DNA from: Dictyostelium discoideum
Lineage: Eukaryota
Direction of reading: 5' to 3'
DNA: 64,000 bases
Assembly (NCBI GenBank): GCA_000004695.1
Contig: CM000150.2
Coordinates: 4,832,001 to 4,896,000 of the forward strand
This document shows positions 25,327-28,262 of the stretch, in pieces. Below the pieces are notes generated by a model. That model was not told where the DNA came from, searched no databases, and saw nothing but the letters and a program-made list of their open reading frames with translations. Every line of letters starts with the position of its first letter. The stretch's first letter is position 1. The position numbers and the translations under genes are program-made.

Positions 25327-28262
25327 TTATTCACTATTACTAATTATTTTACACATTGAACATCCATAACAAAATTCTTCACCAGAAATATGTTTTTCAC
25401 TTCCTTCACACTTACATTGAGGTAATTGAGTTTTTGGGATTTGCGCAACATGATTTACATTTCTATGACATTCAACACAGAAATGAGAGTTACCCCAACA
25501 AAAGAAAGCAGAGATACGACAACAATATTTACATTTGTACTCTATAAACTCTTTTCCATGGATTTTACAATTTTCATTACCACTTGAACTACAACCTCCA
25601 CAAACCAATTCTTCAGGTTTATGCTCACCAGCAATTCTATTTTCGTCAGCAATTGCACAAACCTTTTCACCACCAAAATAGGGTTTCTTACATTTGAAAC
25701 ACATAAAGTAAGAGAATCTATCCATAACATAACCTTCTTTATTATTATACCACTTTGAGAGAGGATCATCAAAGTCTACATCTTTCTCAACACCAAATAA
25801 TGATAGCCTATTCAAAGCTTTAACCTTTATAAAACCATAAAGTTCATTAATTGGTGTGAGATATTTCTCCAAACAAGGATGTTGCATATTTTGTGAACAT
25901 AGCGCACATTTTACAAATCCAAAACTTATTCTTGAACTTGTCCATCTCTTTTTTAAAACTGATGAACAACATTTCTTATGAAATATATGACCACACTCTA
26001 ATTGGATACATGGTTCTGATGATAATGAATCCGTCCAACAAATATTACAATAATCATTTGATTTCTGATTTGTTTTATATTTATTTATTAAATTTGGTTT
26101 TTTTATTATATCATTATTTATTATTGTATTTACTGTTGTACTTGTAGTAGTAGTGGTCGTTGTAGTAGTAGTATTTGTAGGTAATGGAGTTGGAGTATCA
26201 TAATCATTATTATTACAATCTGGATGAATACATGGTAAACATTTAGTTTCGTCTAAAATTCCAAGACATTCATGACCACATCTTAATATTTTTTGACATG
26301 ATTTAATTGATTTTGAAATACATTCATCATTTGAACAACAATTATTATTAATATTATTTCTATTTATAGTTGTTGTAGTGGTAGTTGTATTATTGTTATT
26401 GGGTTTTAAAGATAATCTTGGTGAAACTATTGGAGTAATTGGACAAATTGCAACCCTACAAAATCTACAATGTTTTGAAGAATTATAAATTTGAAATTGA
26501 GCACATGTATAACCTAAATGATAAGGATGAATTTTACATTCTGTACAAAATACACAAGAACATTGAGGACATCTAAATCTAAATTTCCTTTTATGTTCAA
26601 TTGATTCTCTACTTAATTGTTTACCATTTTCATCATATTCTATAGTTTGATCATTTGATTTGATTGAACCATTTTTATTACTATTTAAACTACTTAAAGG
26701 TATGATAACCTTTTCCATCACTAAATTACAACAAGGACATTGAATATATGAGTCCTTATTTCTAGAGATCGCTTGATCCAATGAAGCATCATCATATATT
26801 GAATACTCTTCATCAGTTAATACTTGTTTAATATCATATACTGATAATGATATCTTACATGATTTACATTTTATCTTTGAAACTCTCTTTTCATCAATCC
26901 TTTTCTTTATAAAATTATATAAACATTTTTTACAATAAATATGTGTACACTTTTTTTTTTTTTATAAAAAAAAAAAAAAAAAAACCATTAATTAGTATTT
27001 TATAAATTTATAAATAATAATAATAATAATAATTTAATACAAACATCTAAAAATATAACTTTTTCAATATCTGTTATTATATTTAAACAATCTATACATT
27101 TTATAAGCAATTGATCATTATTACTACCATTGTTATTATCACTACTAGTATCGTTATTAAGTTTAGATTGTTCTATTATTAATTGAGAATTAATTAATTT
27201 ATTAATTTTATCTAAATCATTAGAATTGTTATCAGATGATGTGATAGAGGTATCAGTTGATGTTGAAAGGGATGATGATCCTGATGAAAATGGTGAACTA
27301 ATTGTATAGGTATCAACAATTGGTACATTATCATCTTCTCTAATAATTAAACCAAGTGGTGGATTTGAAATTAGCATTCTTTCCATCCTTGAGTTTATTG
27401 TTGAGGATGATGATGATGATGATGATGTCAATATATCTGCTTTTAAGAATCCCAAACCATTCATTCCAAATAAATCCAATGTATTTGGTTTTATAAATTC
27501 ATTTGATTTTTTTTTATTATCTTTATTCTTATTAATATTATTATTTCTTTTATTTTTTTTATTTTTATTATTATCTTTTTTATTTTTATTTTCACTATTA
27601 TTATTATTATTATTATTATTATTATTATTGTTATTATTATTATTATTATTATTATTATTATTATTATTATTATTATTATTATTATTATTATTATTATTAT
27701 TATTATTATTATTATTATTATTATTATTATTAATGTTATTTTTATTATTATTCGAGTTTAATATTGCTGTTTCATTAGTTTTGAAAAATGTATTTACAAA
27801 CCAATTGTTTGTTAAAGAGAATTGGCCATTATTATTGTTATTATTATTGTCGTTGTTTTCTTTATCGCTAGTATATTCTTCTTCGTCGTCATCGTCATCT
27901 TCTTCCGAGTTATAATCCTCGCTTGTTTCCTCGGAATTACTTATACTATTATCATTATCGCTACTACTATTGCTACTACTATTACTATTACTATTGCTAT
28001 CATCACTTTCATCGCTATCAACTATTTTGTTTTTGTTATTATTATTATTATTTTTATTAATATTATTACTATTGTTGTTTTTGTTGGTATTTTCAACAAT
28101 TCTATTGAATGGGTATCTATTTAACCCATAACTTTTCCCATTATTATTGTCTAAATGATGATGATGATGATGTAAATCCCCAATTAAATCTTGCTCAAAA
28201 ATTCCATTACTTTCATCTTTATGAAAATGGTTATGATTAAATAAAAATGATTTAAAATCCAT
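25327..28262 (-). CDS. Putative E3 ubiquitin ligase of about 941 aa. It has an N-terminal N/H/S/D-rich low-complexity region, an RBR-like RING1 plus IBR, further Cys-rich segments, and a C-terminal MYCBP2-type RING plus tandem-cysteine (RCR) domain. Proposed exons are join(27060..28262, 25327..26949).
   Basis: The downstream exon (open frame back to a TAA at 26962..26964, with no ATG before LVMEKV) begins ...CTHIYCKKCLYNFIKKR..CKSC and lacks the first Cys pair of a RING. The upstream ORF (ATG 28262, 420 aa) ends ...IKCIDCLNIITDIEK. Joining at a phase-0 site (donor GTTATA at 27059, acceptor AAAAAG at 26951..26950) yields C-x2-C-x9-C-x-H-x2-C-x2-C-x21-C-x2-C, a complete C3HC4 RING. An IBR-like segment follows (CPCC...RCPQCSCVFCTECKIHPYHLGYTC). 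The C-terminal 250 aa (YCNICWTDSLSSEPCIQLECGHIFHKKCCSSVLKKRWTSSRISFGFVKCALC...GYVMDRFSYFMCFKCKKPYFGGEKVCAIADE...EYKCKYCCRISAFFCWGNSHFCVECH...) aligns residue by residue with the human MYCBP2 RING-TC module. Confidence 0.78.
27595..27732. repeat. (ATT)n/(AAT)n microsatellite of about 45 units, encoding poly-Asn on the minus strand inside the E3-ligase gene's N-terminal region
   Basis: Near-perfect tta/att repeats seen directly. The antisense poly-L ORF is an artefact. Confidence 0.95.

Follow-up and report, generated by a model that had tools for sequence, protein, structure and literature searches.

A GT-AG intron with an uncommon T at position +3 very probably joins the two halves of RING1 in a Dictyostelium discoideum E3 ligase gene

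In U2-type splicing, the base at position +3 of the 5' splice site, usually a purine, pairs with U1, the G at +5 and the U at +6 pair with both U1 and U6, and a U at +4 can pair with the ACAGAG box of U6. Standard introns of Dictyostelium discoideum begin with GTAAGT or GTATGT and carry an ACTAAT branch site and a polyT tract ahead of the AG; ACTAAT is the commonest branch hexamer (18.66% of introns) and the polyT signal peaks 15-40 nt from the acceptor (PMC2483917). In Entamoeba, 88-90% of introns start with GUUUGU, a sequence proposed to pair additionally with the U6 ACAGA box and matched by a compensating change in U1, ACAAAC (bioRxiv 10.1101/2022.06.08.495308). We analyzed a stretch of 64,000 nt of D. 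discoideum DNA (contig CM000150.2, positions 4,832,001 to 4,896,000; hereafter the window), in which the minus strand encodes an E3 ligase with its first RING domain (RING1) divided between two exons. The intron of this gene resembles standard D. discoideum introns in its GT and AG ends, its length of 95 nt, its very high AT content, its ACTAAT, its T tract and a phase 0 common to orthologues, but it has T instead of A at +3. The resulting donor hexamer is identical to that of Entamoeba, although GTTTGT is here a variant of a single intron among local GTA donors rather than a genome-wide consensus.

We conclude with high confidence that this is a normal U2-type GT-AG intron (27044..26950), removed in phase 0 between Asp406 and Cys407, and that the product of the gene, after removal of this single intron, is a protein of 946 amino acids (aa). 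The 3' end of exon 1 encodes the first half of RING1, CIDCLNIITDIEKVIFLD. Exon 2 encodes the second half (CTHIYCKKC...CKSC), an IBR-like region, further Zn-binding motifs and a MYCBP2-type RING + tandem-cysteine (RCR) domain. Without splicing, the upstream open reading frame (ORF) extends on the minus strand from 28262 to 27000 and reads through to ...VIFLDVCIKLLLLLLFINL, its end being ...KCIDCLNIITDIEKVIFLDVCIKLLLLLLFINL. The frame of exon 2 is shut by a TAA four codons ahead of the TGT at 26949 and is open from there to the TAA at 25329..25327. As noted in the first-pass annotation of this DNA, it offers no early start: the first in-frame ATG lies past the C-x-H-x2-C-x2-C half of RING1 (..NLVMEKV).

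Exhaustive enumeration of GT x AG combinations within 27140..26900 identified two GTs in phase 0, at 27059 (GTTATATT) and at 27044 (GTTTGTAT), and only the second retains the VIFLD strand of RING1. The first-pass annotation had regarded the position after DIEK (27060) as the only one in phase 0 and had overlooked the GTTTGT at 27044. It was right that only one AG is available upstream of exon 2, and also that no GTA donor is compatible in frame, as those at 27127, 27124, 27097 and 27040 are all in phase 1, without a compatible acceptor in the enumerated range. Its view that the halves of RING1 must be joined through a GTT donor rather than a GTA donor is thus upheld, but the site is 27044, after VIFLD, 15 nt downstream of the claimed 27059. 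The 27044/26950 intron is the unique GT-AG solution that fits both the annotated gene range and a 946-aa product. The gene is a base-for-base match to a gene model with a 946-aa product in the D. discoideum assembly GCA_054883475.1, to which a 16.6-kb part of the window is 99.6% identical, and the neighboring gamma-SNAP gene matches D. discoideum AX4 XP_646797.2.

Removal of the 27044 intron restores a conserved, continuous protein with the junction VIFLD|CTHIYC. A homology search with the ligase recovered 117 relatives, and [VI][IV]FLD stands directly ahead of (A)C-x-[HD] in D. discoideum, D. citrinum, D. purpureum, P. violaceum, A. subglobosum and H. album (Table 1). The 27044 junction gives CIDC-x14-C-x-H-x2-C-x2-C-x18-C-x2-C, a spacing typical of RING1 in this family, and it fits the pattern of an RBR-type RING1 of the C3HC4 kind (C-x2-C-x(9-39)-C-x-H-x2-C-x2-C-x(4-48)-C-x2-C). 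A spacing of 14 between C-x2-C and C-x-H is the mode (25 of 52 homologues with detectable RING1), and nearly all close homologues, including transcriptome-derived ones, have 13-15. Wherever RING1 is recognizable in the homologues, a hydrophobic strand stands ahead of its third Cys. We also compared equal-length constructs with and without VIFLD against the Pfam RING families, where all scores fell below the curated cut-offs: zf-RING_UBOX scored 19.7 bits with VIFLD vs 15.8 bits without it, and zf-RING_5, zf-RING_2 and zf-C3HC4 matched the VIFLD construct alone, at full length.

The intron follows directly after TTA GAT (Leu-Asp), in phase 0, in the other genomes compared (donors in Table 1). 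GTTTGT differs only by A-to-T at +3 from the GTATGT that D. citrinum and P. violaceum have there. For the assemblies GCA_054883475.1, GCA_054859205.1, GCA_054859235.1 and GCA_036169595.1 (the last from D. firmibasis), the gene range and product length admit only a GT-AG intron of the 27044 type, and the homologous protein P0001 is what results when exons 1 and 2 of its locus are joined at GTTTGT. MAKER, supplied with genome-guided Trinity transcripts and the D. discoideum proteome, produced the D. firmibasis models (PMC11193728). The junction is already in the public annotations of sister assemblies, as an ordinary intron with an uncommon base at +3.

The orthologous introns vary in length. 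Those of D. citrinum (270 nt; L002 4012..4281) and D. firmibasis (204 nt; L010 gene coordinates 1030..1233) are expanded by (AAT)n and (ATT)n microsatellites, respectively, and those of the other species are 78-103 nt long. The deposited third intron of the P. violaceum orthologue (L013 3213..3272) has no clean GT...AG by exact-match mapping; one residue is unplaced, the gap starts with ATGTATGT, and the boundary is probably offset by a few bases.

From 5' to 3', the elements of the intron include GTTTGTATTA, ACTAAT, T19, and finally AT, A13 and G. ACTAAT provides a CTRAY-like branch motif and T19 a pyrimidine tract, and the agreement of both the branch hexamer and the position of the polyT tract with the published D. 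discoideum pattern (PMC2483917) supports the 27044..26950 intron. ACTAAT is kept in the loci L001 and L012 and reads ACTGAT in L011. At +3, where a purine is expected (A in Dictyostelium), there is a T, and +4 to +6 are as in GTATGT. Because the intron is GT...AG, with departure from the consensus at +3 alone, the description of its donor as non-canonical was too strong. A U12-type, GC-AG or AT-AC intron was considered and rejected, given the GT-AG termini, the donor GTTTGTAT and the branch-like motif ACTAAT; the pairing of [AG]TATCCTT at the donor and TCCTTAAC at the branch is absent.

Locally, a T at +3 is rare. All 11 introns that we reconstructed in five neighboring genes start with GTA (three of these confirmed by RNA-seq), bearing out the earlier observation that other introns in the window begin this way, so that T is found at +3 locally in 1 of 12. 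Among orthologous introns of sister genomes, the sole base other than A at +3 is one G (GTGTGT in D. firmibasis). For the remaining half of the window, coverage came only from an ab initio ORF-bridging intron scan, run over the full 64 kb, which was too permissive and noisy for statistics, and two look-ups for annotation of the right half returned no match. No figure for genome-wide +3 base frequency in D. discoideum was found in the literature searched.

Several points weigh against an ordinary intron at 27044. The +3 T is absent from every one of the neighboring introns, an out-of-frame GTATTA lies 4 nt downstream, and the donor may be inefficient. No junction-spanning transcript or RNA-seq read was recovered, and the homology search returned no transcript-derived protein or contig of the ligase gene; RNA-seq contigs (SRR24091723, SRR24091724 and SRR24091728) were found for the neighboring gamma-SNAP gene only. 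The gene models of the other assemblies are predictions, and possibly come from one shared pipeline.

The alternative that survives best, although we consider it unlikely, is that the weak +3U donor competes with the out-of-frame GTATTA or with intron retention, so that much of the transcript is unproductive and splicing efficiency sets the level of the ligase. Both outcomes lead to early stops: the 27040 donor with the 26950 acceptor gives ...FLDVLYTYLL*, with a stop at codon 414, and retention gives a stop at codon 421. The GTTTGTATTA arrangement is common to D. firmibasis and the D. discoideum complex. The local transcript-supported donors include GTATTT, so the G at +5 is dispensable here, and A at +3 is present in all 11 neighboring introns. 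However, a GT at +5 is found in every GTAAGT or GTATGT donor, which makes the tandem arrangement unremarkable, and D. citrinum has the consensus GTATGT, with no conserved need for a weak site evident. A slightly more doubtful extension of this idea is that the +3U donor is a deliberately weak site kept in D. discoideum and D. firmibasis, by which output of the RBR-RCR ligase would be tied to splicing efficiency via early-stop isoforms, e.g., in development.

Far less probable is the donor originally proposed, GTTATA at 27059. It would define a 110-nt intron and a 941-aa product with ...DIEK|CTHIYC and the spacing C-x2-C-x9-C-x-H. The sequence at 27059 is GTTATATTTTTAG, as the first-pass annotation gave it, the site is in phase 0 with an open reading frame, and x9 spacing occurs in a few distant homologues. 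Those homologues, however, keep a hydrophobic x-Y-L-x strand ahead of the Cys, whereas DIEK is charged, and use of this donor would lose the VIFLD conserved in all dictyostelid orthologues. In D. citrinum, D. purpureum and P. violaceum, an ATT codon aligns with its GTT, so no donor is possible there, and the intron of these species begins 15 nt later. GTTATA also lacks a G at +5, and the product length is compatible with no deposited annotation.

The selection acting on the gene bears on whether the GTT is a sequencing error for GTA or the gene a pseudogene, as had also been suggested. We calculated nonsynonymous (dN) and synonymous (dS) divergence by the Nei-Gojobori method for the window against a divergent lineage of D. 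discoideum; GTTTGT is present in both. Exon 2 has dS 0.068 and dN 0.005 (dN/dS, or omega, 0.074), and omega is 0.17 for exon 1. Over 482 ungapped exon-2 codons, with the window as reference, dS is 0.06-0.12 within the D. discoideum complex, 0.30 for D. citrinum and 0.60 for D. firmibasis, and omega is 0.06-0.10 across comparisons, including all pairs bearing GTTTGT and D. firmibasis. The frame is undisrupted, with intact ORFs in all seven group-4 genomes compared, and selection is not relaxed. Exon 2 has thus been translated in frame for as long as GTTTGT has existed, which rules out both sequencing error and pseudogenization.

Scarcely credible, then, is an error or a pseudogene, for which the atypical T at +3 and the absence of the reconstructed product from the protein collection could be cited, since the window shares GTTTGT with five other assemblies (four of the D. 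discoideum complex and one of D. firmibasis) at dS of up to 0.6, both exons are open in every genome examined despite about 78% A+T, and dN/dS is 0.06-0.17. The absence is uninformative: exact look-ups in the collection found neither of the two candidate products, nor the unspliced 420-aa ORF, nor the Met-started exon-2 ORF, but the reconstructed products of surely annotated genes of two other assemblies (D. firmibasis and D. cf. discoideum) are absent as well. A division into two separate genes is very unlikely, since exon 2 lacks a start codon ahead of the second half of RING1; every orthologue is one single protein. The alternative micro-exon that had been envisaged is unneeded with the 27044 donor. 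By these dS values, D. firmibasis falls outside the pair D. discoideum and D. citrinum. Thus, the +3 T either arose twice or reverted in D. citrinum, two histories that are equally parsimonious.

We infer splicing at 27044 from conservation and selection. Recognition of this donor would probably depend on the retained G at +5 and T at +6, through pairing with U1 and U6, and on the T at +4, through pairing with U6. The consensus ACTAAT branch site, the T19 tract and the short, very AT-rich nature of the intron would probably assist. The correct gene model joins exon 1, to 27045, with exon 2, from 26949, and keeps the VIFLD strand of RING1 in the 946-aa product. A GTT-type donor can thus persist in Dictyostelium under purifying selection over species-level divergence (dS about 0.6), and gene finders restricted to GTA donors would break this gene.

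The predicted protein resembles two types of E3 ligase. Its C-terminal 240 aa align to the RING + tandem-cysteine domain of the RCR-type MYCBP2/PHR (PDB 5O6C), and membership of the RCR type is predicted by homology (5O6C_A, E 8.4e-68, query residues 318-558). The N-terminal RING1 region matches the RBR of HOIL-1 (PDB 7YUI, E 3.9e-5), its best solved relative. Unlike MYCBP2, the ligase lacks a large N-terminal architecture, and has an RBR-like module upstream of the RCR domain. Homologues that combine an RBR-like RING1-IBR with an RCR domain occur widely across amoebae, ciliates and other protists, and the layout is found in Balamuthia, Anaeramoeba, ciliates and a fern. D. purpureum and D. firmibasis have paralogues that carry a C2 domain (P0061, P0086).

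The window is about 78% A+T and contains coding (AAT)n runs. Exon 1 carries a long poly-Asn tract of this kind, in which an in-frame (AAT)n run (27600..27735, minus strand) encodes about 60 consecutive Asn. The length of this run and of other Asn/Thr runs is strongly variable among lineages, with products of 835 to 1001 aa. The clustered protein collection seems to be without proteins that bear such Asn/Thr runs.

Table 1. Features of the ligase gene, sequences of orthologous junctions and donors, and introns of neighboring genes. Positions are those of the window.
Feature	Position	Strand	Description
Exon 1, 406 codons	28262..27045	minus	ATG 28262..28260 to GAT (Asp406) 27047..27045
First-pass donor GTTATA	27059..27054	minus	Coding: codons GTT ATA (Val-Ile), part of the conserved strand VIFLD
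Intron, 95 nt, phase 0, GT...AG	27044..26950	minus	Between Asp406 and Cys407; GT at 27044..27043
5' splice site GTTTGT	27044..27039	minus	T at +3; T at +4, G at +5 and T at +6 kept as in GTATGT
Out-of-frame GTATTA, phase 1	27040..27035	minus	4 nt downstream of the 27044 donor, overlapping it
Putative branch site ACTAAT	26996..26991	minus	Presumed branch A 26992, 42 nt ahead of the G in the acceptor AG
T19 tract	26984..26966	minus	Between branch site and acceptor, 15-34 nt upstream of AG
3' splice site AG	26951..26950	minus	Preceded by A13; no other AG from the stop that closes the exon-2 frame upstream as far as Cys407
Exon 2, 540 codons + TAA	26949..25327	minus	TAA at 25329..25327
Orthologue, D. 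discoideum other lineage			...DIEKVIFLDCTHIYC
Orthologue, D. citrinum			...DIEKIIFLDCTHIYC
Orthologue, D. purpureum			...VDDIIFLDCSHFYC
Orthologue, P. violaceum			...IEEIVFLDCSDIYC
Orthologue, A. subglobosum			...HENVVFLDACGHVYC
Orthologue, H. album			...VEDIIFLDCSHVYC
Orthologous donor, D. citrinum			GTATGT
Orthologous donor, D. purpureum			GTAAAT
Orthologous donor, P. violaceum			GTATGT
Orthologous donor, D. firmibasis			GTTTGT
Orthologous donor, three further D. discoideum or D. cf. discoideum assemblies			GTTTGT
NPC1-like introns			GTAAGT, GTAAGT
RPL35a introns			GTATGT, GTAAGT
gamma-SNAP introns			GTAAAG, GTATGT, GTATTT, GTATGT; last three confirmed by RNA-seq contig L007
AP-5 sigma intron			GTAAAT
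152-aa gene intron			GTAAGT
Suc_Fer-like intron			GTAAGT

Scans of the 64-kb window identified no tRNA genes and no Rfam families at gathering score. A single exon (24092..24685, minus strand) encodes a 197-aa proline-rich protein in which a PPPVASKPAPPSFKA repeat occurs in four tandem copies, along with a WH2-like motif (RGALLNSIQKGAKLKK); its length ranges from 177 to 203 aa among species. At about 14.6-18.4 kb of the window, on the minus strand (L005 5808..9540), a deposited 679-aa model has protein-kinase and histone-fold Pfam matches and introns of about 1.7 kb, and may represent two merged genes.

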